DNA from: Candidatus Omnitrophota bacterium
GTDB lineage: Bacteria > Omnitrophota > Gorgyraeia > Gygaellales > Profunditerraquicolaceae
Assembly: GCA_041650795.1 (NCBI GenBank)
Contig: JBAZKK010000001.1
Span: forward strand, 10,608-74,607
Length of the DNA stretch: 64,000 nt
Direction of reading: 5' to 3'
The notes below the pieces were generated by a model. The model saw only the letters and a list, made by a program, of their open reading frames with translations, was not told the origin of the DNA and made no database searches. Shown one piece after another: positions 19,961-34,709 of the stretch. How positions within the stretch are numbered: the stretch's first letter is position 1; every line of letters begins with the position of its first letter. The position numbers and the translations under genes are program-made.

Positions 19961-20938
19961 ATGAATATAACTATAACTACTTATTGTAATTTGAAGTGCC
20001 CCTATTGTTTTGCCGCGGACTTATGGAAGGCATCTGGTAGCAGGAAATGCGATAGGGAAATAAGCCAGAGGAATTTGAGCAAGGTCATAAAATTCATGAA
20101 AAAATCAGGTCATGGTACTTTCCGTATCTTTGGCGGAGAGCCTACCTTGCACAGCAGGTTCGAAGAGGTCTATAACACAATTTCAAAAAATAACTTTTCT
20201 ACCGTGATTTTCTCAAACGGAGTTATACCCCGTCAGAGGATTGAATTCCTGAAGGCGCAACCTAATCTGCGACAAATCGTTGTTAATACGCAGCACCCCA
20301 GTGATTATAGGCCCTACCAATATGAACAATTTAAATTCAGTCTATTGCGTTTAGGCAGCCTCATAACCTTAGGATTCGTCGTTTACAAGACCAACTTTGA
20401 TAGTACCTTTATTGTCGATTTGATAGAAAGATACGGTCTGAATAGAAAGGTTAAGGTATCCATAGCAGCGCCTCTGTGCGGGGGCAAGAATAGTTACATT
20501 GAACTCAAAGACCATAAAAAGGTAATCAAAAGATTGGTCAGACAGTCCAGCGTATTCAAGCGGCATGGTATCAGATGGTATCCCGATACTACGTTTATGT
20601 GGTGCCTGTTTACGCAGGGACAATTAGCTGAATTATACGATAATGTGAGATTCAGCCCCATTAACTTGTGCACCCCCGTATTAGAGGTGGCCCCGAACCT
20701 GAGCGTCTATCGCTGTTATGGTGCGGCAAGCCTGAGTAACCCAAAACTAAAAATAACGGACTTCGGAAACGAAAAAGAGGCTTTCGGGTATTTCGCCAGA
20801 AAGGAAGCCCCTTTTAAGACGCTTGGAGTTTTTGCGAAATGTTTCAGATGCGATATGCGGGGACAAGCCTGCGGGGCAGGATGTATAGTGCACATATTGC
20901 AGTCCCTGCCTAAAAAGGATTACGGCTACATTTATTAG
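19961..20938 (+). CDS. radical SAM protein with C-terminal SPASM/twitch-like Cys cluster
   Basis: CxxxCxxC starts at residue 9 (YCNLKCPYCFA). C-terminal CFRCDMRGQACGAGC (C-x2-C-x6-C-x3-C). More AT-rich than its neighbours. Confidence 0.8.
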   Translation: MNITITTYCNLKCPYCFAADLWKASGSRKCDREISQRNLSKVIKFMKKSGHGTFRIFGGEPTLHSRFEEVYNTISKNNFSTVIFSNGVIPRQRIEFLKAQPNLRQIVVNTQHPSDYRPYQYEQFKFSLLRLGSLITLGFVVYKTNFDSTFIVDLIERYGLNRKVKVSIAAPLCGGKNSYIELKDHKKVIKRLVRQSSVFKRHGIRWYPDTTFMWCLFTQGQLAELYDNVRFSPINLCTPVLEVAPNLSVYRCYGAASLSNPKLKITDFGNEKEAFGYFARKEAPFKTLGVFAKCFRCDMRGQACGAGCIVHILQSLPKKDYGYIY

Positions 20939-20948
20939 CAATAATAAG

Positions 20949-23855
20949 ATGGATATGCTTGAAGGATTAAATAAAGAACAGGAGAAGGCGGTCACCCACC
21001 GCCAGGGGCACCTTCTTATTATTGCCGGAGCAGGCACGGGCAAGACTACAGTTATTACCAGGAGGGTTGCCTGGCTCTTATCGCAGGGCCTGGCGCGCAC
21101 CAGCGAAATCCTGGCGCTTACCTTTACTGACAAGGCAGCGCTGGATATGCTGGAGCGGGTAGATATACTGGTTCCGTACGGCTACACGGATATCTGGGTA
21201 TCTACGTTTCATGCCTTTGGCGACAGGATCTTGCGCGAGAATGCCCTGGTTGCGGGGCTTGACCCGGATTTCAAGGTTTTGACCAGGCCTGAGGCTGCGG
21301 TGTTCTTCAGGGAGCACCTTTTCGAATTCGACCTCTCTTATTACCGGCCTTTATCCGAACCCACACGTTTTATCGAAGCCCTGATTTCGGTTTTTAGCCG
21401 CGCCAAGGATGAGGATATTTCTCCACAGGACTATCTGGAATATGCCCGCCAGCTCAGTATCAGGGCAAGCCAGAATAACGATCCTGCTTTGCAGGAAGAA
21501 GCGCGTCAGCAGATGGAGGTAGCCCTGGCCTACAGCAGATTCCAGGAACTATTTGCCAGGCACGGGGTAGTGGATTTCGGAAATCAGTTCTACCTGGCGC
21601 TCGGGCTCTTACGGGAGCACCCCCTGGTTCTAAAAAGATATCAGGAGCAGTTTAAATATATACTCGTAGATGAATTCCAGGATACCAATTTTGCCCAGTT
21701 CCAGCTGGTGAAATTGCTGGCAGGCGCCACTGGCAATATCACGGTTGTTGCTGATGACGACCAATGCATTTACAGGTGGCGCGGCGCCGCCTACAGCAAT
21801 GTGATGAACTTTACCGAGAGCTTCCCGCAGGCAGACAGGATTAGCCTTATCAAAAACTATCGCTCCACCCAGGCTATCTTAGACAGCGCCTACCGCCTGA
21901 TTCAGAATAATAATCCCGAGCGCTTTGAGGTCAAGGCCGGCATCAATAAAAAGCTGGTCAGCGCCGATAAGGTTAAGGGGAAGCCGCCGCGGCATTTACA
22001 TTTCGACACGAATTCGGCGGAGGCGGACTGGGTGGCCGGTACTATCCAGAGCAAGGTTAAGGTCGGCGAGCTTAAATACCGGGATTTTGCAATCCTGGTG
22101 CGCTCCAATTCAGATGCCAAGGCATACCTGCAGGCCCTTAACATGCAGGGTCTCCCCTGGCAGTTCAGCGGCAATCAGGGGCTCTATTCCCGCGAGGAGG
22201 TAAAACTCTGCATCAGTTTTCTGCGCGCCCTGGCAAACCAGTCTGATTCCTTAAGCCTGTATTATCTGGCGACGAGCGAGGTATATTCGCTTGACCTCTC
22301 GGATGTAGGGCTGTGCATGCATTATGCCAGGCGCAGCAATAAATCGCTTTATGCGGTATTCGAAAACCTGGAGAATATAACGGAATTAGCAGGGATAAAA
22401 GAGTCCTCACGCAAAAAGATTAAAGGCATCCTGGAGGACCTTGGCAGATTCCTTAAGTTTTCGCGGCAGGAAACCACTGGCAGGCTCTTGTACAGCTTCC
22501 TGACCGACACCGGCTACCTCAAGAAGTTCACCAGGGATATGGACCTCGAGAAGGAAGGCAAGATCCAGAACGTTGCTAAGTTTTTCAATATCGTGCGTGA
22601 CTTTGAGCTGGTGGCAAAAGAAGACCGGGTGATTAATTTTATAGGTTACCTTGATCTTCTGATTGAAGCGGGGGACGACCCCGAGACCGCCGAGAGCGAC
22701 CCGAACGCAGACCTGGTAAACGTCCTTACCATCCATAAGGCCAAGGGGCTGGAGTTCAAAACGGTTTTCTTGGTTAGTTTGGTAAACGCTAAATTCCCCG
22801 TTTCGCACCGTAGGCAGTCCCTCGAACTCCCGGACGCCCTTATAAAAGAGATACTGCCGGAAGGGGATTTTCACACCCAGGAGGAACGCCGCCTCTTTTA
22901 TGTCGGGATGACCCGCGCCAAGGAAGAGCTCTATTTTACCTCTGCCGCGGATTACGGAGGGGCGCGCACCCGCCGCGTGAGTCAATTTGTATCCGAGGCC
23001 ATCGGACAAGAAAACAAAGATAAGGAAGGACAAAAGAGAAACGTGCTTGAAGCAATTCAGAGATTTGCGCCGAAGAAGGATTCGGTTAAACCAGTTCTCG
23101 CACCCATCGCCGAAGACAAAATCTTGGCCCTCAGCTTCTATCAGGTTGACGATTATATCACCTGTCCCTTAAAATACAAATATGTGCATATCCTGCGTGT
23201 GCCTATTATGGAGCACCACACCGTTATCTACGGCCGCGCCATGCATGAAGCGGTAACCAGATATTTTCAGTTTAAGATGGCAGACAGGAGGATGCAGCTG
23301 GGGGAGCTCCTGGAGGCATTCCGGCTCAATTTTGACCCGCGGGGTTTTATCAGCGAAAAACACCAGGAAGAGCGTTTCCGCATCGGACAGGAGGCGCTGG
23401 CGCGTTTTTACAATGCGGAGGAGAGGCGCAACTCCAAACCTCTATACATTGAAAAGGATTTTTCTTTTATGCTGGACAATAATAAAATCCGCGGCCGTTT
23501 TGACCGTATTGATAAAGATGATGACGGCGCGGTTATTATGGATTTTAAGACCTCTGAACTTAACAGGCAGGAGGATGCTGATAAACGCACCCGGGAGAGT
23601 CTCCAGTTGAGCATCTACGCCCTGGCCTATCAGAATATCTTCGGTGAGCTTCCGAAACTCGTACAGTTGTATTTCCTGGAGTCCGGCTTAATCGGAAGCG
23701 CTGAGAGAAATGAAAAAGACCTCCAGAAGCTCAAGGGCAAAATCAGTGATGTAGCCTGCGGCATCCGCAGCCGCGCCTTTGAGGCCAAGCCGGAATATAT
23801 GGCATGCAGGTACTGCGCCTACAACCAGATCTGCCCTTCGGCGATTGTAAGATGA
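20949..23855 (+). CDS. UvrD/PcrA-like superfamily-1 helicase fused to a C-terminal PD-(D/E)XK (AddB/Cas4-type, Fe-S) nuclease domain
   Basis: Walker A AGAGTGKTT, motif II VDEFQDTN, TIHKAKGLEF and VGMTRAK. C-terminal FDRIDKDDDGAVIMDFKTSE and QLSIYALAY. Cys set: C in YITCPLKY plus CRYCAYNQIC. Confidence 0.85.
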   Translation: MDMLEGLNKEQEKAVTHRQGHLLIIAGAGTGKTTVITRRVAWLLSQGLARTSEILALTFTDKAALDMLERVDILVPYGYTDIWVSTFHAFGDRILRENALVAGLDPDFKVLTRPEAAVFFREHLFEFDLSYYRPLSEPTRFIEALISVFSRAKDEDISPQDYLEYARQLSIRASQNNDPALQEEARQQMEVALAYSRFQELFARHGVVDFGNQFYLALGLLREHPLVLKRYQEQFKYILVDEFQDTNFAQFQLVKLLAGATGNITVVADDDQCIYRWRGAAYSNVMNFTESFPQADRISLIKNYRSTQAILDSAYRLIQNNNPERFEVKAGINKKLVSADKVKGKPPRHLHFDTNSAEADWVAGTIQSKVKVGELKYRDFAILVRSNSDAKAYLQALNMQGLPWQFSGNQGLYSREEVKLCISFLRALANQSDSLSLYYLATSEVYSLDLSDVGLCMHYARRSNKSLYAVFENLENITELAGIKESSRKKIKGILEDLGRFLKFSRQETTGRLLYSFLTDTGYLKKFTRDMDLEKEGKIQNVAKFFNIVRDFELVAKEDRVINFIGYLDLLIEAGDDPETAESDPNADLVNVLTIHKAKGLEFKTVFLVSLVNAKFPVSHRRQSLELPDALIKEILPEGDFHTQEERRLFYVGMTRAKEELYFTSAADYGGARTRRVSQFVSEAIGQENKDKEGQKRNVLEAIQRFAPKKDSVKPVLAPIAEDKILALSFYQVDDYITCPLKYKYVHILRVPIMEHHTVIYGRAMHEAVTRYFQFKMADRRMQLGELLEAFRLNFDPRGFISEKHQEERFRIGQEALARFYNAEERRNSKPLYIEKDFSFMLDNNKIRGRFDRIDKDDDGAVIMDFKTSELNRQEDADKRTRESLQLSIYALAYQNIFGELPKLVQLYFLESGLIGSAERNEKDLQKLKGKISDVACGIRSRAFEAKPEYMACRYCAYNQICPSAIVR

Positions 23856-23859
23856 AGTC

Positions 23860-25047
23860 ATGACTAATTTTGGCCCCTGGAAATCAATTTCCCCTGAGGC
23901 AAAATTATCTCTTCTCATAGCAAAGGCCTTAGTCAGCGATACTAAGGCCGGAGCCATCGAAGAATTCCTGAATCAGGAGCAGCTGGACTGGTATAAATTC
24001 AATAAAATTATCACCTGTCATGAATTATCGCCTTCCGCTTATATTTTCCTAAAAAAATACCCCGAGTTTATCCACCAGGATGAATTAAAATTATTAGAGC
24101 GGCATTTCTACGCTAATTTGCTACACTTAAACTTAATACAGCAGGAATTGATGAAAATCCTGCAGAGTTTTCAAGAGGAAAATATTATAGCACTACCTTT
24201 AAAAGGAGCGCATTTTCTTCTGGATACCAGTATCTATAGGGATAAGGCCTATTTAAGGCCGATGATAGATATTGATATTCTACTTAAGAAAGAAACCTAC
24301 CATCAAGCACAAAATATTTTAGAATCGCAAGGGTATAAAATGGAATTAAAGGGCAACAGGGAAGAATACTGGCTGAATAAAAATTGCAATATGGCCTTTA
24401 TTAAGATGCTCCAGGATAACTGTAGTTATATCGTAGAACTACACTGGGCCCTGGATTATCCAAGAGGCATCCGTTTACTTCCGCATCTCTGGAGTAGAAT
24501 AAAGAGAATAGAAGTAGAAGGGAATAACATTTATCTTTCTTCTCCGGAAGATGCTTTTTTTAGCCTAATCCTGCATCAGCGCCGCTTCGGAAATGCCCTT
24601 CCCCTCAAAAGGGCTTGCGACGCAGCAATATTATTGACCAGATACAAGGGGGAGCTGGATTGGGATTATATGATAGAAGAGGCAGCAAGAGGAAAGATGC
24701 GCACCATCCTTTATTTTGCACTCTCGCAGATAGAGACCCTGTTCGATATTAAAATCCCGCCTTCGGTCTTGAAAATATCAGGAGTCCCGGATTATAAAAA
24801 GAAATTAATCAGAAACCTTCTCTTGCGGGATACTTTTAAGTATAGTCTGAATTTAAACAGCGTTTATCTCAAAGCTCACTTTTTTCTTTATGATGATTTC
24901 AGGGAACCGGTAAAATCCATTTTGAATATTCCGCAAGAGCAGTTTGCTAAATTCTATAATTTAAAACCATACACCGCTAAAACAGATTTATTGTATAGAT
25001 GGCGCTACCTCCGTTATTTAAAAACCCTGATATTAAATAAATATTAA
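23860..25047 (+). CDS. NTP_transf_5-type (uncharacterised) nucleotidyltransferase family protein
   Basis: LPLKGAHFLLDTSIYRDKAYLRPMIDIDILLKKE matches the G...R..DxD nucleotidyltransferase core of this family. 395 aa and AT-rich. Confidence 0.7.
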   Translation: MTNFGPWKSISPEAKLSLLIAKALVSDTKAGAIEEFLNQEQLDWYKFNKIITCHELSPSAYIFLKKYPEFIHQDELKLLERHFYANLLHLNLIQQELMKILQSFQEENIIALPLKGAHFLLDTSIYRDKAYLRPMIDIDILLKKETYHQAQNILESQGYKMELKGNREEYWLNKNCNMAFIKMLQDNCSYIVELHWALDYPRGIRLLPHLWSRIKRIEVEGNNIYLSSPEDAFFSLILHQRRFGNALPLKRACDAAILLTRYKGELDWDYMIEEAARGKMRTILYFALSQIETLFDIKIPPSVLKISGVPDYKKKLIRNLLLRDTFKYSLNLNSVYLKAHFFLYDDFREPVKSILNIPQEQFAKFYNLKPYTAKTDLLYRWRYLRYLKTLILNKY

Positions 25048-25112
25048 ATAATGTATCAAACCATTTTCATTATTAAAACCCCTTAATTTCTATATCCCAA
25101 TATAACAATATA

Positions 25113-25121
25113 TGGTAAAAT
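25113..25121 (+). promoter_or_regulatory. putative extended -10 promoter element (TGgTAAAAT) upstream of the precursor ORF
   Basis: TG at 25113-25114 and TAAAAT at 25116-25121 in a very AT-rich 110-nt intergenic gap. There is no good -35. Confidence 0.35.
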
Positions 25122-25159
25122 ACTTTTTATAATAGGGAAAATCAGACAAGGAGGTGGAC

Positions 25160-25348
25160 ATGAAAAAGAGAAAGTGGAGCCGTCCTAAATTAATAATCTT
25201 GGTTCGCAATAACCCCGAAGAGGCGATATTATTAGGTTGCCTCTCTTGCAACTGGTGTAGTTTTAAACCAGGGCCCAGTCAAAATATAGCAGATTGCGAC
25301 CCTACTGAAACATGCAATTCAGCCTGTTCGAGGCAGACGGATACCTAA
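25160..25348 (+). CDS. candidate RiPP precursor peptide, 62 aa, six Cys
   Basis: AAGGAGG RBS lies 5 nt before ATG 25160. Translation is MKKRKWSRPKLIILVRNNPEEAILLGCLSCNWCSFKPGPSQNIADCDPTETCNSACSRQTDT. It sits immediately upstream of the modification genes. Confidence 0.6.
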   Translation: MKKRKWSRPKLIILVRNNPEEAILLGCLSCNWCSFKPGPSQNIADCDPTETCNSACSRQTDT

Positions 25349-25384: not shown

Positions 25385-26443
25385 GTGTTAAAAATAACAG
25401 TGCCATTTAAAATGTCATCGGAAGTACTCCCTCTTATTGAAGAAGGGGCAGATGAGCTGTATTGCGGCTATCTTCCCGCAGAATGGGAAAAGAAATATAC
25501 TAACCTAGAGTTTGAGCGTAAGGGGGGAAGCAGCAATTTTACTAATATTAACGAGTTAAGGCTTGCCATAAAATTAGCCCATAGAAAAAATGTACCGGTA
25601 TTCGTTGCCTTAAACGGATTATATATCAGTGAACAGTACAGGATGTTATTGGATATAATTAATAGCCTTAACCGTATAGGCATAGACGGCTATATTGTAG
25701 CTGACCTTGGACTGCTACTTACTTTAAAGGGGCTAGGTTTTAATAAAGAAATACATATTTCTACCGGCGGGGCAGTATTCAACCAGGAGGCGGTTGATTT
25801 TTATAATAGATTAGGCGCCAAGCGTATAATCTTAGACCGGCAAACTAGCCTGGAGACAATAGATGCCCTATCATCTTATTATCCTAGAATGGAGTTCGAG
25901 GTATTTATCCTTAATACACTTTGTGTGTATATAGACGGCTTGTGCACCTTTATGCATAGCCCGCTGGATATGGCCAAGGATAGGCATAGCATGGCTGGAA
26001 GAAGCACAAATGTTTATACGACATATGACATAAACGCATATAAGGAAGCGTGTTCCCTGAAGTATTCTGTCAAGTCCTGCGATATATCGGGGAGGGGGCT
26101 GCAGCAGGCAAAGAAAATAGCGCCGGTATTCCATAAGCCCTTAACAGACGGCGTAGAATGTAATGCCTGTTCGCTGTATTATTTGAACAAGATGAATATC
26201 AAGGCAGCCAAGATAGTAGGCAGGCAATTGAGCGCACAGGCCAGGTTGAAGAGCATAAGGTTTATACGGGCCGTTTTAGATATACTTGATAGTAACAAAG
26301 GCATAAGCAAGAGAGACTTTATGCTCAAGACAAAGCGGTTATATCGTAACAGTTTTAACTATCATAAGCTATGCGAAGGGAACAATTGCTATCATCCCGA
26401 AGTGTTAAGATATGGAAAAGGCCATTTTAATCAACAGTCTTAG
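25385..26443 (+). CDS. peptidase U32 family protein (UbiU/RlhA/TrhP-type fold), long paralog
   Basis: N-terminal ...EEGADELYCGY and NVPVFVALNG...IDGYIVADLGLL layout. EFEVFILNTLCVYIDGLCTFMHS nearly matches the U32 signature E-x-F-x2-G-[SA]-[LIVM]-C-x4-G-x-C (recalled from memory). Confidence 0.78.
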   Translation: MLKITVPFKMSSEVLPLIEEGADELYCGYLPAEWEKKYTNLEFERKGGSSNFTNINELRLAIKLAHRKNVPVFVALNGLYISEQYRMLLDIINSLNRIGIDGYIVADLGLLLTLKGLGFNKEIHISTGGAVFNQEAVDFYNRLGAKRIILDRQTSLETIDALSSYYPRMEFEVFILNTLCVYIDGLCTFMHSPLDMAKDRHSMAGRSTNVYTTYDINAYKEACSLKYSVKSCDISGRGLQQAKKIAPVFHKPLTDGVECNACSLYYLNKMNIKAAKIVGRQLSAQARLKSIRFIRAVLDILDSNKGISKRDFMLKTKRLYRNSFNYHKLCEGNNCYHPEVLRYGKGHFNQQS

Positions 26444-27278
26444 CCAGCTGCGTGCGGTTAACAAGCAATACCGGCGGATCTACTACGGGGTTGAATTCTG
26501 CGAAAGATTAATGCCTACGCCTTACGATTTGTCTAAGGTCACAGATTTTATTCTAAGGAATAATTTAAAACTTTCCTTAGTAACTCCATATGTCACGCCC
26601 AGGGGGTTAGAAAATGCCGTTGCATTATTCGATTTTTTGAATTCGAGAAGATTACAACCAGAGGTTATCATCAACGATTGGGGGGTATTGAATGTATTGC
26701 GTCGTAAATACAAAAATCTTATCCCGGTATTAGGAAGGTTGCTTAATAAGCAAAAGAGGGGCCCTACCTTAATCACTTTGTTAAAGGAAAGAAAAAACTC
26801 CAGCCCTGTTTATCTATACGATCCCAAGCGGCGCAGCATTGTTTATCAGAATAAATTGCCAAAGGGCATTGAATATTATTATAAAACTTCAAATGTCCTC
26901 AGCATGCCGATTATCCAGGATTTTTTATATAATTTAGACATCAAAAGGATAGAATTGGATAATGTCGGTCAGGGTTTCCTGTCGGATTTGCCAAAGGGAA
27001 AGATTTCCGCATCGGTTTATGTCCCCTTTGTCTATATCACGACTACTTTCTACTGCCCTAGTGCCGGATGCGAGGATAATAATACCGCGTCTTTGAAGTT
27101 GAAGCCTTGCCATAAAGAATGCCAGAAATATATATTTAAATTGCGACATCCTGCGATGCCAAAGGTTATTTACCTAAAAGGTAATACCCAATTCTATAAA
27201 AATAGGTATTTATCTATAAACATGCTTAAGAGAGCGGGAGTCAATAGGGTTGTTTATGAACCGCGAGTACCGTCATAA
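26412..27278 (+). CDS. divergent peptidase U32 family protein, short paralog
   Basis: Layout RRIYYGVEFCERL...KLSLVTPYV...EVIINDWGVLNVL parallels the N-terminal half of U32 proteins. Cys pairs CPSAGC and CHKEC. Overlaps the preceding U32 gene by 32 nt. Confidence 0.62.
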   Translation: MEKAILINSLSQLRAVNKQYRRIYYGVEFCERLMPTPYDLSKVTDFILRNNLKLSLVTPYVTPRGLENAVALFDFLNSRRLQPEVIINDWGVLNVLRRKYKNLIPVLGRLLNKQKRGPTLITLLKERKNSSPVYLYDPKRRSIVYQNKLPKGIEYYYKTSNVLSMPIIQDFLYNLDIKRIELDNVGQGFLSDLPKGKISASVYVPFVYITTTFYCPSAGCEDNNTASLKLKPCHKECQKYIFKLRHPAMPKVIYLKGNTQFYKNRYLSINMLKRAGVNRVVYEPRVPS

Positions 27279-27381: not shown

Positions 27382-29343
27382 ATGTCTGGCGATAATTATA
27401 CAGAATTAAGCAATATAAATAATCGGATTCGCATTCCTTTGAGGGGGCATATAGATTTGACCTATCGTTGTAATAACAGTTGTCTGCATTGTTGGACGCA
27501 GGTCCCTCCATCTGCTGAAAAGAAAAATAAAGAATTATCCTTTAACGAATTTAAGGAAATAATAGAAGAGGCAAAATCCATGGGTTGCCATCAGTGGTCT
27601 ATCTCTGGGGGCGAGCCGATGTTAAGAGGAGATTTCTTAGAGCTCTTTGATTATATGACGCGAAATTCAACATCTTACTCTATTAACACGAACGGTAATT
27701 TTATAACCCCTAAGATCGCTAGGTTGATGAGAAGAAAAGGCAGGAAGATGGTAGTTTTATATGGCTCTACTGCTGCGGTCCACGACCATATAACGCGCAA
27801 TCCCGGCTCATTCGAAGCGGCATTGCGCGGCATTGGATATCTCAAAGAGGCAGGAGCGGGTTTTATTGTTCAGCTCGTTCTCATGAAGGACAACCACCAT
27901 GACTTCGGCAATATGGTTAGATTAGCGCAATCCCTGAGTCAAAACTACCGGGTCGGCGCGCCATGGCTGTTTCTTTCTGCTTGCGGTAACCGCCAGGTAA
28001 ATTGTCGAATAAAACGTCAAAGGCTCAAGCCCCAAGAGGTAATAGCGCTGGATGAGCCGGATTTATCTTACGAAGATTGGATGCATGAACATTATAAGGA
28101 GCTGCTCCGTAGGCCAGCGAAAGAGGAGTATTTATTTTCGGCCTGCATCAAGAATCGCCAGGAATTTCATATTGACCCTTATGGTGGAATGACCTTTTGC
28201 AATTTCATTAAAGCCTCTTATATGCGCTATGATTTAAGAAAAGGTAACTTTAAAGAAGGATGGGAGGTTTTTATCCCGTCCTTAGCCAAGGGTATTAAGG
28301 TCAATAAAGAGTATCAGGAGAATTGCGGCAACTGTGCATTACGTAAAGACTGCCGCTGGTGCGCGGTTTACGGGTATTTAGAACATCGTCGTTTTAGCGC
28401 TAGAGTTGAGTATCTTTGCGCCATAGCCAGAGAAAACAGGAAATTCAAGGATGGATGGCTTAAGAGTCACCGCAGATATTATAAGATTGCGGGCATAACC
28501 GTTCAGGTTGATTCGGATCTATCCATTCTTGAGAATACCTTCGATCACAAATTTAGACTATTTGAGGTAAACGGCCCATCTGAAGATGTGGTTAGCATAA
28601 GGCACCACTTTTCGCTCCCTGAGTTAAATCCTAAAGATCTCGGGAAAGAATTGTATCGCTTCGCTCCTTGGGTTATCTATCGTAAAGATAACTCTTGGAT
28701 TTATCTTACCGTATCATCAGGTAAACCTTCAAAAAAATCCTTGTGTCAGGTTGCGGTATTCAACCACGACCACAGCAGAGCGAGGATATATCATAATACG
28801 GATAAAACATTCTTAAAAGGCGGGCTGCATTCTTTGACGCTTTTGCCAACGGATCAGCTTTTCTTGTCTCAGATTCTAGCTGATCGAGGCGGTTTTATCT
28901 TGCATTCCTGCGGCATAAAGTTTGACGCTAAGGGTTTACTTTTTGTAGGCCATTCCGGAGCAGGTAAATCTACTATTGCCCGACTTCTTGAAGATAAATC
29001 TGAGATTTTATGCGATGACAGAATTATTGTGCGTGAAGGGCCAGGCGGATTCAAAATTTACGGCACTTGGAACCATGGGGACGTTTCAACGATATCGCCC
29101 AAGTCGGCCCCTTTAAGAGCGATTTTATTTCTGGATAAGGCTAAGGAAAATCTGCTGTTACCGATAGAGGATAAAGGAGATATCGCAAGAAATATTCTTG
29201 CTTGCGTCGTGAGGGCGCTGCCTACTTCATCTTGGTGGGAAAAAACATTGTTGCTGGTGGATAAAGTAGCGCAGGAGATACCCTGTTATATCCTTAAGTT
29301 TGATAAAAGCGGTAAAATAGCGGATAGATTAAGGGGATTATGA
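27382..29343 (+). CDS. radical SAM/SPASM enzyme fused to a C-terminal HPr-kinase-like P-loop domain
   Basis: LTYRCNNSCLHCW (CxxxCxxC) and SPASM CGNCALRKDCRWC. The C-terminal ~290 aa carry LLFVGHSGAGKSTIARLL...LCDDRIIV, like the HprK C-terminal domain. Confidence 0.82.
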   Translation: MSGDNYTELSNINNRIRIPLRGHIDLTYRCNNSCLHCWTQVPPSAEKKNKELSFNEFKEIIEEAKSMGCHQWSISGGEPMLRGDFLELFDYMTRNSTSYSINTNGNFITPKIARLMRRKGRKMVVLYGSTAAVHDHITRNPGSFEAALRGIGYLKEAGAGFIVQLVLMKDNHHDFGNMVRLAQSLSQNYRVGAPWLFLSACGNRQVNCRIKRQRLKPQEVIALDEPDLSYEDWMHEHYKELLRRPAKEEYLFSACIKNRQEFHIDPYGGMTFCNFIKASYMRYDLRKGNFKEGWEVFIPSLAKGIKVNKEYQENCGNCALRKDCRWCAVYGYLEHRRFSARVEYLCAIARENRKFKDGWLKSHRRYYKIAGITVQVDSDLSILENTFDHKFRLFEVNGPSEDVVSIRHHFSLPELNPKDLGKELYRFAPWVIYRKDNSWIYLTVSSGKPSKKSLCQVAVFNHDHSRARIYHNTDKTFLKGGLHSLTLLPTDQLFLSQILADRGGFILHSCGIKFDAKGLLFVGHSGAGKSTIARLLEDKSEILCDDRIIVREGPGGFKIYGTWNHGDVSTISPKSAPLRAILFLDKAKENLLLPIEDKGDIARNILACVVRALPTSSWWEKTLLLVDKVAQEIPCYILKFDKSGKIADRLRGL

Positions 29344-29344
29344 T

Positions 29345-30541
29345 ATGGACAGTCCTTATGTATCTAGATCGACCATAAATAAGGCGAGACTCTGGAAATC
29401 AAATAGGCCTGTTTTAAGGTGGTTAGATATTGAGCTCACCGAGCGTTGTAACAACAATTGCATTCATTGTTATATTAATTTACCTCCTGATGATTCAAAT
29501 GCGATGAAGATGGAGCTTTCAGGGAATGAGCTAAAGCGCATTCTTAAGGAGGCCGCATCTTTGGGGTGTCTAAAGGTGCGTTTTACAGGGGGTGAGCCGT
29601 TTCTGCGCAAAGACTTCGAAGAACTCTATGTTTTTAGCCGTAGGCTGGGGCTGAAAGTCGCGGTATTTACCAACGCTACGTTGTTAACTGAGAAGTTGGC
29701 GGCTGTATTCTCCAGGTTCCCCCCCATGGAAAAGATAGAAGTTAGCGTATACGGAATGAAAAAGTCTAGTTATGAATTCGTGACCAGGGTGCCTGGGTCT
29801 TACGAGGCAGCGAAAAAAGGCATAGGTATCTTATTAGATAAAAAGATTCCGTTTGCTGTAAAGAACACCTTAACCCCTTTTAATAAAAAAGAAGTTTCCA
29901 GATTTGATAATTGGGCCAAATCTATACAGGGGGGGGAGGGAGTCCCATATAATATCTTTTTTAATTTGCATTGCAGGAGAGATGAGCGAAAGAATCGTTT
30001 CATCAGGAAGTTCAGAGTTAGCCCCACGGAAGGGGTTAAATTTTTGATGCGCGATAAAAAGGCATATTCCAAGGCAATTCTTAATTTCTGCTCCAGGTTT
30101 ATTGGCCCGCCGGGAGATCGGCTTTTTTCTTGCGGTTCAGGAAAGGGGATAGGCTGTGTTGATGCTTATGGCAAGTTTCAACCCTGCATGTTGCTGAGGC
30201 ATCCGGATTGCGTTTATGATTTAAAAGGGGGCTCGCTTAAAGATGCGCTAGAAAATTTTTTCCCTAGATTAAGGGAAGCAAAGGCAATGAAATCCGACTA
30301 TCTTAACCGTTGCGCAGAGTGTTTCTTAAAAGACCTCTGCGAGCAGTGTCCGGGCGTGTCCTGGATGGAGCACGGGGTTCTGGATAGGCCCGTTGAGTAT
30401 TTTTGCAACATCGCACATACCCAGGCCAGGGCCATTGGCTTGTTGAATCCCGGAGAGATGGGGTGGGAAGTAAGCGGATGGAGGGAAAGGATTAGTAAAT
30501 GCGTGAAAAAAGGAGGTCGTGATTATGAAAACAAATATTAG
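29345..30541 (+). CDS. radical SAM/SPASM peptide-modifying enzyme (paralog 2)
   Basis: LTERCNNNCIHCY, SPASM CAECFLKDLCEQCPG, and HPDCVYDL and EYFCNIAH motifs shared with the paralogs. Confidence 0.85.
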   Translation: MDSPYVSRSTINKARLWKSNRPVLRWLDIELTERCNNNCIHCYINLPPDDSNAMKMELSGNELKRILKEAASLGCLKVRFTGGEPFLRKDFEELYVFSRRLGLKVAVFTNATLLTEKLAAVFSRFPPMEKIEVSVYGMKKSSYEFVTRVPGSYEAAKKGIGILLDKKIPFAVKNTLTPFNKKEVSRFDNWAKSIQGGEGVPYNIFFNLHCRRDERKNRFIRKFRVSPTEGVKFLMRDKKAYSKAILNFCSRFIGPPGDRLFSCGSGKGIGCVDAYGKFQPCMLLRHPDCVYDLKGGSLKDALENFFPRLREAKAMKSDYLNRCAECFLKDLCEQCPGVSWMEHGVLDRPVEYFCNIAHTQARAIGLLNPGEMGWEVSGWRERISKCVKKGGRDYENKY

Positions 30542-30827
30542 TATTGATAAAATTTATGTGCCTTCAAAGGATGTAGTCTCCAGGGAAGTGCAGGGTGAAT
30601 TTATCCTTATCCCTATCGTATCCGGAATGGATAAAAACAAAGAAGCGATATTTACCCTTAATGAAACCGGGAGATTAATCTGGGACAAACTGGCCAAAAA
30701 GAAGAGTATTAGAAAGATCGTATCTGAGCTATCTTTAGAGTTTGCTAGTCCTGCTAGGAAGATTCAAGAGAATGTGTTAGGGTTTCTTAAAGAACTCCTC
30801 AAGAGAAAGATGATAGTTTCATCTTAA
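30525..30827 (+). CDS. PqqD-family protein (stand-alone RiPP recognition element)
   Basis: About 100 aa with the pattern ...VVSREVQGEFILIP...IFTLNETGRLIWDKL...IRKIVSELSLEF...VLGFLKELLKRKMI, typical of PqqD. AGGAGG lies 8 nt before ATG 30525. Confidence 0.72.
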   Translation: MKTNISIDKIYVPSKDVVSREVQGEFILIPIVSGMDKNKEAIFTLNETGRLIWDKLAKKKSIRKIVSELSLEFASPARKIQENVLGFLKELLKRKMIVSS

Positions 30828-30845: not shown

Positions 30846-31889
30846 ATGCCTTGCCATAAACTTCGGTACAAGGAATTTTGTAGCCAGGTTAATAATTATC
30901 TTCCTTGCTGCGATACTAAAGAGAGGGTAAGGGCGCATCATCAACCGCTTTTTTTAAGAACTATTGATACGCCAGGGGTCATGCTACAGCTTTTTGAATT
31001 TAAAGAAACAATGATAAGAAGAAATATAGTCAAATTCTATGCTAAAGGGATTTGTATGTATCCTGCCGTACGGCCCGGAGATATCTTGCATCTAGAATGC
31101 AAAAAAATAGATGATATAAAGGTAGGAGATATCGCGGTTTATCGGCGCAATAATAATTTATTTGGCCACCGCGTTATTAATAAGGGATGTCAGGAAGGGG
31201 CAGCGTATCTTATAGTCAGCCCCGATAATTCAGGGGATGGTAGCGAAGGGCCGATTTTTAGCGATGATATTGCGGGTGTAATAGTCAACATTGAAAGAAA
31301 AAGAAGCAGCCGGGTAAATGTCGAATTTATAATTTTAATGAAAATTAAAAAATTTCTGAGCAAAAATTTTATTTATCCTATGGCGTTTATGCAATCTTCT
31401 TTACTCTATAAGCAAATCGCAAAAATCTTGTCTTTAAAAATAAAGAAAGATTTAACTTTTTCTATCACTATGCCTTTAAAGGGAAATATAAATTCCAGGT
31501 TTCGTAGAGTGGTATCTTCGGACGAGGTTTTTAATTTTAATAGAGATGAAAATTTATTATTAGAGTGGACGCTTGTCTTAAATATCTCTCGTAGGCCGGT
31601 AGCTTCTTTGTCATTTGTGCGCCATCCTAAGGATTGCTGTTTTTCAGGATGGTGGATATCGCAAGGTAAGATAATGAATTTATATCGCGGCAGCATAATA
31701 GAGGAAGAGATATTTAAGAAATCAGAAGAATTATTATCGGCCTTGGGGGCACAAGATGTCTCGGTAAGCATCGCCAAGAATGATTATTTAAATAGAATGA
31801 TTTTTGGAGGGTTAGGATTTAAGGCAAAGAGAAGTAACGATCGCCCAAATCCTGATTTTAGTGTGTTGGAGAGAAAGGTTAAAAAATAG
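30846..31889 (+). CDS. signal-peptidase-fold (S26B/S24-like) protein with Cys in the nucleophile position, plus a C-terminal domain of unknown (weakly GNAT-like) type
   Basis: KGICMYPAVRPGDILHL...DIKVGDIAVY...GHRVI...SPDNSGDG aligns with the SipW-type pattern SGSMEP..GD...GD...HR...GDNN. The start is uncertain (alternatives at 30981 and 31011). Confidence 0.55.
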   Translation: MPCHKLRYKEFCSQVNNYLPCCDTKERVRAHHQPLFLRTIDTPGVMLQLFEFKETMIRRNIVKFYAKGICMYPAVRPGDILHLECKKIDDIKVGDIAVYRRNNNLFGHRVINKGCQEGAAYLIVSPDNSGDGSEGPIFSDDIAGVIVNIERKRSSRVNVEFIILMKIKKFLSKNFIYPMAFMQSSLLYKQIAKILSLKIKKDLTFSITMPLKGNINSRFRRVVSSDEVFNFNRDENLLLEWTLVLNISRRPVASLSFVRHPKDCCFSGWWISQGKIMNLYRGSIIEEEIFKKSEELLSALGAQDVSVSIAKNDYLNRMIFGGLGFKAKRSNDRPNPDFSVLERKVKK

Positions 31890-33103: not shown

Positions 33104-33913
33104 ATGGATTGCACAATCAAGGTAACGGGTTTAACAAAGCAATTCTTTCCTTCTAGGGGTATCTATACCGCCCTGTTACATCCCCTTGAAAAGCCAAGGC
33201 CGATTTTAGCAATCGATGACATTACCTTTGAGGTTAAGAAAGGGGAATTCATATATCTGGTTGGTCCAAACGGAGCAGGTAAGACTACACTGATAAAGAT
33301 TATGTCGGTTGCCGTTCTGCCCACAAGCGGCAGAGCGATGGTCAATGGCTATGATGTTGTTAAAGACGAATCTAGGGTAAAGGCTTCCATCGGGTTAATA
33401 AGCGGGGATGAGCGCAGTTTCTATTGGAGGCTGACCATGCGGCAGAATCTGGATTTTTTTGCCGCGCTTTACAATCTTTCTGCAGTACAGGCACGCATAA
33501 AAATAGAAGAATTAGCTAATTTTCTAGATATAACATCTTATCTTGACCGGAGATTCCAGGAATGTTCTACAGGCATAAAGCAGAGACTGGCGATTGCCAG
33601 GGCGCTGCTCAATAATCCCTCTGTTTTATTTATGGACGAACCTACAAAAAGCCTTGACCCCCTGACAGCCAGGAACTTAAGGGATTTTATTAAAGACAGG
33701 TTAGTCAGGGAACAAAAAAAGACCGTTGTTTTTGTTACCCATAATCTTTCAGAGGTAGAGGATTTCGCCGACCGCATAGTTATTATGTATCAAGGGAGGA
33801 TAAAGGCTTGCGGGACAATCCCTGACTTGCGGCAAACCATAAATTCACCTCAGGCCAGCCTGGAAGAATTGTACGGTAAGATTATAAACAGTAATTCCGA
33901 TGCCGTTGCGTAA
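33104..33913 (+). CDS. ABC transporter ATP-binding protein
   Basis: Walker A GPNGAGKTT, signature STGIKQRL, Walker B LFMDEPT. Confidence 0.9.
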   Translation: MDCTIKVTGLTKQFFPSRGIYTALLHPLEKPRPILAIDDITFEVKKGEFIYLVGPNGAGKTTLIKIMSVAVLPTSGRAMVNGYDVVKDESRVKASIGLISGDERSFYWRLTMRQNLDFFAALYNLSAVQARIKIEELANFLDITSYLDRRFQECSTGIKQRLAIARALLNNPSVLFMDEPTKSLDPLTARNLRDFIKDRLVREQKKTVVFVTHNLSEVEDFADRIVIMYQGRIKACGTIPDLRQTINSPQASLEELYGKIINSNSDAVA

Positions 33914-34709
33914 AGTATTCGCCTTCATTAAGAAAGAATTTTTAGTTAAGTCCAGTTACTGGCTGGCATTTATATTCAGCTGGCTAGGTATCCTTGTCTC
34001 AGTTGCGACCTTTTACTTTATCTCTAAGTTGCTTAATCCGGAAAATATTATTTCGGTAAAAGAGTATGGGATAGGGTATTTCCCCTATGTCTTAATCGGG
34101 ATTGCTTTCGCAGGGTACTTTTCGACTGCCATGCATGCTTTTTCCGGGAAAATAAGGCATGAACAAGTTACCGGGACATTAGAGGCGATGCTCGTTACCC
34201 CCACGCGCTTATCCACCATTATTATTTCATTATCCTTGTGGGATTTTATTTTTACTTCTATAAATGCCTTTATCTATTTATTCTTCGGCGCGGTATTCTT
34301 CAAGGTCAGTTTTATGCAGATGAATATCCCGGCTGCCTTAGTGATTCTGATTTTAACGATCGTATCACTTAGCAGCATAGGCATCATCTCGGCCTCTTTT
34401 ATTATGGTTTTTAAAAAAGGCGACCCCATAAGTTGGCTGATGACGATGTCTTCGGGGTTCTTCAGCGGCGTATTCTTCCCGGTAGACATACTGCCGCTAG
34501 GATTACGGGTATTTTCCTATTTCTTTCCCCTTACCTATGCTCTTAGGGGTTTACGCCATGCTATCCTACAGGGATATGCTATCAGGATGCTCATGCCGGA
34601 TATCGCCGCCCTTGCCGTCTTTTGTATTATCCTCGTTCCGTTGAGCATGAAGCTGTTTGGATATGCGGTGAAGCGCGCGAAGATATCGGGGAGCCTTACC
34701 TATTACTGA
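33900..34709 (+). CDS. ABC-2 type transporter permease
   Basis: 269 aa with about six hydrophobic segments. Overlaps the ATPase gene by 14 nt. No C39 peptidase domain. Confidence 0.75.
   Translation: MPLRKVFAFIKKEFLVKSSYWLAFIFSWLGILVSVATFYFISKLLNPENIISVKEYGIGYFPYVLIGIAFAGYFSTAMHAFSGKIRHEQVTGTLEAMLVTPTRLSTIIISLSLWDFIFTSINAFIYLFFGAVFFKVSFMQMNIPAALVILILTIVSLSSIGIISASFIMVFKKGDPISWLMTMSSGFFSGVFFPVDILPLGLRVFSYFFPLTYALRGLRHAILQGYAIRMLMPDIAALAVFCIILVPLSMKLFGYAVKRAKISGSLTYY

Follow-up and report, generated by a model that had tools for sequence, protein, structure and literature searches.

Cys-rich core peptides served by SPASM/PqqD machinery are typical of sactipeptides and ranthipeptides (e.g. subtilosin/AlbA, SkfB, SCIFF/CteB, freyrasin/PapB and QhpD), two groups of peptides that are made on the ribosome and modified after translation (RiPPs), in which SPASM-type radical S-adenosylmethionine (rSAM) enzymes act on a precursor whose leader is recognised through a RiPP recognition element (RRE) or PqqD. 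In pyrroloquinoline quinone (PQQ) biosynthesis (PqqA/PqqD/PqqE) a small peptide is handed by a stand-alone PqqD to an rSAM/SPASM enzyme without an RRE of its own; PqqA begins with W-x-K-P and continues with hydrophobic residues and an Arg, and known precursors of cofactors, for example PqqA and MftA, are conserved and in most cases present as a single copy. SynChlorMet (SCM) is a bioinformatically defined rSAM peptide-modification system, covered by five NCBIfam/TIGRFAMs models (ScmA, TIGR04252; ScmC, TIGR04249; ScmD, TIGR04248; ScmE, TIGR04250; and ScmF, TIGR04251), and we know of no characterised product. In phosphorylated lasso peptides (paeninodin PadeA/PadeK, ThcoA/K, SyanA/K and pseudomycoidin PsmK/PsmN), HprK homologues phosphorylate the hydroxyl of an "extremely conserved" C-terminal Ser of linear precursors, and in the case of pseudomycoidin the nucleotidyltransferase-family protein PsmN adds hexoses to the C-terminal phosphate (PMC9266682, PMC6993621, PMC8498205); these HprK-family kinases share a His-Lys-Asp-Asp motif (PMC9266682). 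Here we analyse a 64,000-nucleotide stretch of DNA from a Candidatus Omnitrophota bacterium (GCA_041650795.1, contig JBAZKK010000001.1, positions 10,608 to 74,607; hereafter the window), in which a small open reading frame (ORF) at 25160-25348 very probably encodes the precursor (substrate) peptide of an rSAM RiPP pathway that shares components with each of these systems.

The precursor gene and its family

The ORF extends on the + strand from an ATG at 25160 to a stop codon at 25346-25348, and encodes a 62-aa product, MKKRKWSRPKLIILVRNNPEEAILLGCLSCNWCSFKPGPSQNIADCDPTETCNSACSRQTDT. An earlier annotation made from the nucleotides alone (the sequence-only reading) had described this peptide, an AT-rich gap upstream of it and six Cys residues (27, 30, 33, 46, 52 and 56), all of which are confirmed in the window sequence, as are W6, P9 and L11. 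The 112-nt gap 5' of the ORF is poorer in GC (Table 1) than the flanking genes (~0.35-0.45). The Shine-Dalgarno sequence AAGGAGG (25148-25154), with its 5-nt spacer to the ATG, had been called the best ribosome-binding site of the cluster; sequence and spacer are as described, but the rank is shared with the PqqD gene (ATG at 30525), which also has AAGGAGG, at a spacer of 8 nt, while the Shine-Dalgarno sequences of the remaining cluster genes are weak or absent. Nothing points to an attenuator or riboswitch at the peptide ORF: promoter and terminator scans around it gave counts like those of shuffled sequences (no distinct sigma-70-like promoter or terminator), an Rfam search around it gave no match, and the RNA 3' of the stop codon folds into no stable structure (z=0.04).

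Seen in isolation, the ORF could be taken for a chance intergenic reading frame that yields no product: it is short, the peptide has no Pfam match and no NCBIfam match at E<=0.01, and a word-indexed protein search with the window peptide alone retrieved identical copies only, on five Logan contigs (a single-peptide search of this kind is uninformative on conservation). Identical contigs are present in the runs SRR13427965, SRR13427970, SRR13427971 and SRR8542065. Comparative data reject this reading, to which we assign a negligible probability. The search for related loci was based on the enzyme encoded at 27382-29343, in which an rSAM/SPASM domain is fused to a kinase domain (the fusion enzyme) and which has >1,800 homologues at ~60% identity, mostly labelled Candidatus Omnitrophota. 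A locus scan using the single fusion protein confirmed none, and an alignment query was needed: with an alignment of fusion-enzyme homologues as query, 312 matches were found in a one-genome-per-species collection and 80 loci were fetched. Small ORFs of the same family (1-11 per locus, 127 genes in total) are present in 63 of these 80 related loci; 119 of the 127 precursor genes share the strand of the closest core gene, and the separation from a core gene has a median of 276 bp. Syntenic homologues of the window peptide are ~30% identical to it and are found across phyla.

We built a leave-one-out hidden Markov model (HMM) from 120 small ORFs of other genomes, excluding the window peptide, and searched it against 1,671 window ORF variants. 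The window peptide was retrieved with 51 bits (E=9.6e-15), whereas the second-best window ORF had E=0.46; together with the syntenic homologues, the relatives found in representative proteins (see below) and the strong Shine-Dalgarno sequence, this result speaks against a chance ORF. Among HMMs of parts of the peptide, again from other genomes, the leader-only model retrieves the window peptide with 48.9 bits (E=3.4e-14), and the core-only model does not retrieve the window core, as one would expect of a hypervariable core. Since the core-only model misses it, conserved core sequence is no usable criterion, and Cys and tail spacing alone can serve as one. The sequence-only reading had set beforehand, as a test of its proposal, a search for small ORFs with K-W-x-x-P-x-L next to homologous rSAM genes; the outcome was the expected one, with a conserved leader, variable cores and retained Cys spacing. 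The locus thus has the features by which rSAM/SPASM RiPP precursors are generally recognised (a co-oriented conserved ORF, a conserved leader with a variable core, and an RRE together with SPASM-type rSAM enzymes), and family, synteny, domain content and conserved residues agree in identifying the ORF as the precursor.

The precursor family is very large, unnamed and uncharacterised, and occurs in hundreds of anaerobic bacteria and archaea: its hosts include Omnitrophota, Desulfobacterota, Aminicenantes, Chlorobiaceae, syntrophs, Methanothrix and other uncultivated anaerobes. When 1.84 billion representative proteins were searched with a profile, 3,419 relatives came out at E<=1e-3, 995 of them at E<=1e-10, and public data hold no fewer than 3,400 precursor clusters at the 50% identity level. 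All sampled family members are annotated as "hypothetical protein" or are nameless. We found no paper describing the family in the full-text literature, mostly without subscription journals, which is absence of evidence only.

Precursor genes are also observed in arrays, with near-identical leaders and differing cores, for example 11 genes in L014 (11586-19221) and eight in L060 (5296-15836); L038 and L040, both from Methanothrix, have six precursor genes each. Such arrays resemble a natural combinatorial library. In a different arrangement, a metagenome representative of 180 aa (P0153) has two tandem precursor-like units in one ORF, each with a leader, CK and a Cys triad; it is a double precursor produced by fusion or else results from read-through in gene calling. 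The whole system with its precursors is found in archaeal metagenome-assembled genomes of Methanothrix (L038, L040, L045, L061 and L067) as well as in many bacterial phyla, which implies transfer between domains.

Leader, core and tail of the precursor

Family statistics were derived from 121 members and an 87-sequence alignment, and were repeated on 142 metagenome representatives. The leader starts with 2-4 Lys/Arg, followed by the consensus W-x-[K/T/R]-P-x-L-[I/V]-V-L-x-R-x-x-P-E-E-x-V-L-x-x, where position W+5 is L/I/V/M in 120 of the 121 members and Arg at W+10, Glu at W+15 and Leu at W+18 are found in 85%, 89% and 88%, respectively. The residues preceding the first Cys (C1) are L(99%)-x-[A/G/V/T], and the distance from the Trp to C1 is exactly 21 residues in 106/121 members. 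The core that follows is a hypervariable stretch (~35 residues) with many Gly, Ser and Cys. Lys directly follows C1 in 110 members, 95 members have exactly four Cys, and the last two Cys are spaced by two residues (56 members) or three (40 members), with a preceding gap of mostly 4-8 residues. The tail after the last Cys is exactly six residues long in 89 out of 111 members, and Ser is the C-terminal residue in 110/121 and Thr in 7/121 (117 with either). Invariant positions in the 87-sequence alignment are (in window numbering) W6, P9, C27, C46, C52 and C56. The fixed features of the core are C1-K, three further Cys (C..C-x2/3-C) and a six-residue tail ending in Ser or Thr, and nothing else. 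The window peptide has oddities of its own: Leu after C27, the extra C30 and C33, and the terminal Thr.

These statistics bear on several earlier claims. The leader/core boundary proposed at G26|C27 falls where the conserved block ends, and the C-terminal C-x5-C-x3-C is, together with the six-residue tail, the scaffold of the family. The N-terminal C-x2-C-x2-C, which had been counted as a feature of the core, is peculiar to the window member, as C27 alone is conserved. The argument that Asp and Thr residues are the thioether acceptors is without comparative support, because the residues between the Cys are hypervariable. Finally, the lasso-like WxxPxL motif is there (W6, P9 and L11) but not in the place equivalent to that of the lasso leaders: it is at -21/-18/-16 relative to the core, as compared with -17/-14/-12 in lasso precursors (PMC10368454), i.e. 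a Trp, not a Tyr, that is four residues further from the core.

The leader/core junction L24-L25-G26-C27-L28 (25229-25243; L-x-[A/G]-C in the family) looks like a lipobox. The likeness is probably coincidental: the segment before the junction is charged (R..PEE), and for this reason the leader is not a signal peptide.

Gene neighbourhood

All genes between 23860 and 34709 are on the + strand (Table 1). The sequence-only reading had placed the peptide in a cluster with a PqqD protein and three SPASM-type rSAM enzymes; this holds, the PqqD protein passing the Pfam cut-off, and the three rSAM enzymes are found in essentially all related loci with enough sequence.

Table 1. Features of the precursor gene and its cluster (window coordinates; loci counts refer to the related loci, with or without the window itself)
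Feature	Position	Strand	Observations
NTP_transf_5 nucleotidyltransferase-family protein	23860..25047	+	PF14907 E=1.8e-38; homologue in ~33/80 loci
AT-rich intergenic gap with Shine-Dalgarno sequence	25048..25159	+	GC 0.23-0.27; AAGGAGG 5 nt before ATG
Putative leader, residues 1-26, MKKRKWSRPKLIILVRNNPEEAILLG	25160..25237	+	W6, P9, L11, R16, E20/E21, L24
Putative core, residues 27-62, and stop	25238..25348	+	C27, C46-x5-C52-x3-C56, tail SRQTDT ending in Thr62
Peptidase_U32 family protein (UbiU/TrhP-like)	25385..26443	+	PF01136 E=2.7e-27; UbiU 87.9 bits vs cut-off 440
288-aa protein, no family match	26412..27278	+	No Pfam/NCBIfam match; co-occurs with U32 in L007
rSAM/SPASM domain of fusion enzyme	27382..28473	+	PF04055 E=4.7e-20; CxxxCxxC at residues 30-37
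ScmC/HprK-like P-loop kinase domain fused to rSAM	28474..29343	+	PF27840; GHSGAGKST; H508, K529, D545, D546
Second rSAM/SPASM enzyme, 398 aa	29345..30541	+	PF04055 E=2.5e-18; 50-63% identical homologue in nearly all loci
Stand-alone PqqD-family RRE protein	30525..30827	+	PF05402 49.2 bits vs cut-off 23.4; 65/80 loci
Endoplasmic reticulum (ER)/archaeal-type signal-peptidase-like domain	30846..31340	+	TIGR02228 E=1.1e-8; 53/81 loci
C-terminal ~180-aa domain fused to peptidase	31341..31889	+	No Pfam match; fused in this way in ~15 loci
Third rSAM/SPASM enzyme, 371 aa	31899..33014	+	PF04055 E=2.3e-23; 50-62% identical homologue in related loci
ABC exporter (ATPase 33104-33913, ABC-2 permease 33900-34709)	33104..34709	+	Pfam matches on identical L001/L002 genes; ABC ATPase in ~34 loci

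Radical SAM/SPASM enzymes

In all three rSAM enzymes the CxxxCxxC motif begins at about residue 30-37, and SPASM-type Cys motifs are found near the C-terminus (the Pfam SPASM model itself has no match at E<=0.01 in these proteins). Because CxxxCxxC comes so early, none of the three has an N-terminal recognition domain of its own. In the fusion-enzyme alignment C255, C273, C315, C318, C324, C327 and C346 are invariant. The nearest solved structures are BlsE, SkfB, MoaA and PqqE for the second enzyme and SkfB and PqqE for the third, all of them remote.

The system has in common with sacti- and ranthipeptides the Cys-rich core, SPASM-type rSAM enzymes, putative leader recognition of the RRE/PqqD-dependent kind and SkfB as one of the nearest solved relatives. 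Membership in a characterised sacti- or ranthipeptide maturase family is ruled out by the NCBIfam scores: PapB (NF047865) scores 57.6 bits vs a cut-off of 340, StsB (NF045574) 79.9 vs 625 and AlbA (NF012164) 69.7 vs 850, and scores for the PapB, StsB, AlbA and SkfB (TIGR04403) models are 5-10 times below the cut-offs. Those systems differ further in having one maturase (two paralogues at most), as opposed to three distinct enzymes here, and in having no counterpart of the kinase domain or of the Ser/Thr conserved at the C-terminus; the family described here, for its part, has no conserved acceptor residue.

Kinase domain and the C-terminal Ser/Thr

Residues ~365-653 of the fusion enzyme (653 aa) match ScmC (TIGR04249, E=1.9e-10), HprK_rel_B (1.5e-8) and hpr-ser (6.5e-5). 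An AlphaFold2 model of the kinase domain (predicted local distance difference test score, pLDDT, of 85) matches phosphoenolpyruvate carboxykinase and HPr kinase/phosphatase in Foldseek with a probability of 1.00, and a sequence search of the PDB with the ScmC domain returned P-loop noise only, with HprK at E ~0.6. Four residues that are invariant in the fusion-enzyme alignment, H508, K529 (in the P-loop GHSGAGKST), D545 and D546, agree with the His-Lys-Asp-Asp motif of the lasso kinases.

We infer that the fused kinase domain would phosphorylate the C-terminal hydroxyl of the peptide (that of Thr62 here, mostly of Ser elsewhere), as PadeK, ThcoK and PsmK do on lasso precursors, because the peptides end in Ser or Thr a constant number of residues after the last Cys, the domain is HprK-like, NTP_transf_5 is frequent and the leader is of the aromatic-xxPxL type, and also because of weak matches to the paeninodin model (nine out of 87 members) and the best NCBIfam match of the PqqD protein, a lasso B1 family. 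Action of the HprK-like domain on the C-terminus had been suggested in the sequence-only reading, an idea that the near-invariant Ser/Thr end sharpens. The NTP_transf_5 protein may extend the C-terminal phosphate, as PsmN does.

Much of this evidence would also fit a phosphorylated lasso precursor of the paeninodin type, as such systems likewise combine an aromatic-x-x-P-x-L leader, a near-invariant C-terminal Ser (Ser or Thr here), a stand-alone PqqD/B1 RRE, an HprK-family kinase with His-Lys-Asp-Asp, a nucleotidyltransferase-family enzyme and an ABC exporter. The weak matches mentioned above are to the model NF033524 (best E 0.009), and among the NCBIfam models the PqqD protein matches lasso_PqqD_Bac best, with 37 bits and so short of the cut-off of 80. 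We nevertheless regard a lasso peptide as highly improbable, and lasso membership is rejected because the defining enzymes are absent: neither a cyclase (the asparagine-synthetase-like C protein) nor a B2 protease is found among the ORFs of the 19.9-34.7 kb region or in the conserved set of the 81 loci. In their place are three rSAM/SPASM enzymes and four fixed Cys; the kinase forms one domain of an rSAM enzyme, the window peptide is missed by the lasso precursor models, and the leader motif is displaced as described above.

Relation to SynChlorMet and to PQQ biosynthesis

The cluster could also be a member of the SCM cassette, the peptide then being a divergent ScmA. The component types are the same (a small precursor, a PqqD-family protein, rSAM/SPASM enzymes resembling PqqE and a ScmC module related to HprK), and the hosts are similar, with Chlorobiaceae, syntrophs and methanogens among them. 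The fusion enzyme's C-terminal domain has a precomputed match to PF27840 'ScmC' in addition to that to TIGR04249, ScmE and ScmF are among the better matches of the rSAM enzymes, and one family member matches ScmA at E=0.014. All five models, however, remain below their cut-offs, most of them far below: 78-93.3 bits vs 400 for ScmF, 74-84.8 vs 400 for ScmE, 40.5 vs 125 for ScmC and 26.7 vs 100 for ScmD, while the ScmA model misses the window peptide and matches only one out of 87 family members. SCM has two rSAM enzymes as compared with three here, one of which is fused to ScmC, and here a signal-peptidase-like protease belongs to the conserved set. We consider membership unlikely and, because of the scores far below cut-off, the third rSAM enzyme and a precursor that ScmA does not recognise, treat the cluster as a putative sister system of SynChlorMet, which is its closest catalogued relative.

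The likeness to PQQ biosynthesis lies in the stand-alone PqqD and in rSAM/SPASM enzymes that have no RRE of their own. Membership in the PQQ pathway was rejected: PqqE scores 63-66 bits vs 381 and PqqD 30 vs 46, PqqB and PqqC are absent, and there is no PqqA match. Instead of the conserved Glu/Tyr pair of PqqA, the present system has multi-copy, hypervariable cores that are rich in Cys.

Signal-peptidase-like protein

The N-terminal half of the 347-aa protein encoded downstream of the PqqD gene resembles archaeal/ER-type signal peptidases. Its motifs G-x-[S/C]-M-x-P, His-Arg and Asp are conserved, which is what one expects of an active ER-type signal peptidase with Ser/His/Asp. In the window protein Cys70 (GICMYPA) replaces the nucleophilic Ser that 41 out of 56 homologues have, with H108 and D127 conserved; all 15 Cys variants seen are long forms with the extra ~180-aa domain (window residues 166-347). 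Assignment of this 53-locus gene family to the GNAT acetyltransferases was a single-linkage artefact, as domain-wise searches show the shared domain to be signal-peptidase-like; true GNATs are found in only eight loci. L-x-[A/G/V/T] before C1 is a plausible cleavage site with a small residue at -1, which would put the leader/core junction at G26|C27, and the protease would cut the leader off at this L-x-G|C.

Proposed pathway

In the pathway that we propose, the stand-alone PqqD protein would bind the leader through W-x-x-P-x-L...R..PEE.VL and present the core to the three rSAM enzymes. These would modify the four conserved Cys, most likely by forming intramolecular thioethers of the sactionine or ranthionine type to variable acceptors; we rate thioethers as most likely because a Cys-rich core with SPASM/PqqD machinery is the hallmark of sacti- and ranthipeptides. 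After phosphorylation of the C-terminus and removal of the leader, the ABC-2 transporter would export the product. Tentatively, and as something possible rather than probable, the cluster may represent a distinct and unnamed RiPP class, in which three rSAM enzymes would build a crosslinked four-Cys scaffold and a fused kinase would phosphorylate the C-terminal Ser/Thr, with elaboration by NTP_transf_5 in some cases.

The peptide could be a precursor whose Cys are not thioether donors, and instead undergo or accompany other rSAM chemistry (C-C crosslinks, epimerisation, or oxidation or excision of Cys) or act as metal or Fe-S ligands of a small redox peptide or cofactor, as opposed to an exported natural product. 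The distance of the rSAM enzymes from characterised thioether synthases would fit such a role, as would the missing conserved acceptor and the conservation of three different rSAM enzymes; the Lys after C1 could be a crosslink partner or a recognition residue. We consider this alternative unlikely: hypervariable cores and multi-copy arrays speak against a cofactor, ABC exporters are frequent, and the combination of core and machinery named above is that of sacti- and ranthipeptides.

Returning to the thioether pathway with C-terminal phosphorylation, a number of observations weigh against it or against parts of it. We infer its chemistry (binding, thioethers and phosphorylation), and thioether formation is a guess among several rSAM chemistries because the enzymes are remote from every characterised maturase: none of the three passes any NCBIfam cut-off, and the solved relatives (BlsE, SkfB, PqqE and MoaA) are at E ~1e-8 to 1e-11. 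No acceptor residue between the Cys is conserved in the family alignment, and the retention of three distinct rSAM enzymes throughout suggests more than one reaction type. The terminal Thr of the window peptide belongs to a minority, NTP_transf_5 is found in only ~40% of loci and the peptidase in ~65%. Motif-dependent recruitment is not assured, because in one lasso system the YxxPxL residues are dispensable for phosphorylation (PMC10368454). As for the precursor itself, 17 out of 80 loci have no family ORF. Twelve of these end within 1.5 kb of the core genes; the other five (L030, L039, L044, L052 and L054) are flanked on each side by 3 kb or more and have the enzyme set, and neither the family HMM (E<=10) nor a search for Cys patterns recognised a precursor in them. 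Their precursors may be encoded elsewhere or be of another family.

With the ORF as its precursor, a substrate is now assigned for a cluster that is common in uncultivated anaerobes and in which every copy of the peptide is annotated "hypothetical". A known precursor with a leader/core boundary, four fixed Cys and a C-terminal Ser/Thr makes the pathway testable by heterologous expression, and offers an easy criterion by which natural core variants can be mined in their thousands. The cluster is notable for its abundance, for its spread over bacteria and archaea, for the module of lasso-like leader, kinase and C-terminal Ser, and for three uncharacterised rSAM enzymes, which, being conserved, are candidates for new chemistry. 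Lasso-type logic is here mixed with rSAM/SPASM chemistry, which suggests an exchange of modules between RiPP pathways. If the cluster does represent a distinct class, this would be the first non-lasso RiPP with C-terminal phosphorylation of the HprK type, possibly with at least one unprecedented rSAM reaction, and would be spread over hundreds of uncultivated anaerobic bacterial lineages and Methanothrix archaea.

Other genes near the precursor

Between the precursor gene and the maturase genes are the U32 gene and the overlapping gene for the 288-aa protein, a pair that was observed only in the window and in L007 among the 81 loci. U32 proteins include O2-independent hydroxylases, and the two genes may provide a rare extra modification. 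A UbiU/UbiV-like pair of paralogues is unsupported, as BLASTP found no similarity between the 288-aa protein and the U32 protein.

Just upstream of the cluster (19961-23855) are genes encoding a fourth rSAM protein (325 aa, with weak viperin/MoaA-like matches below cut-off) and a 968-aa UvrD-like helicase. Both are outside the conserved gene set, each having a relative in only two loci.

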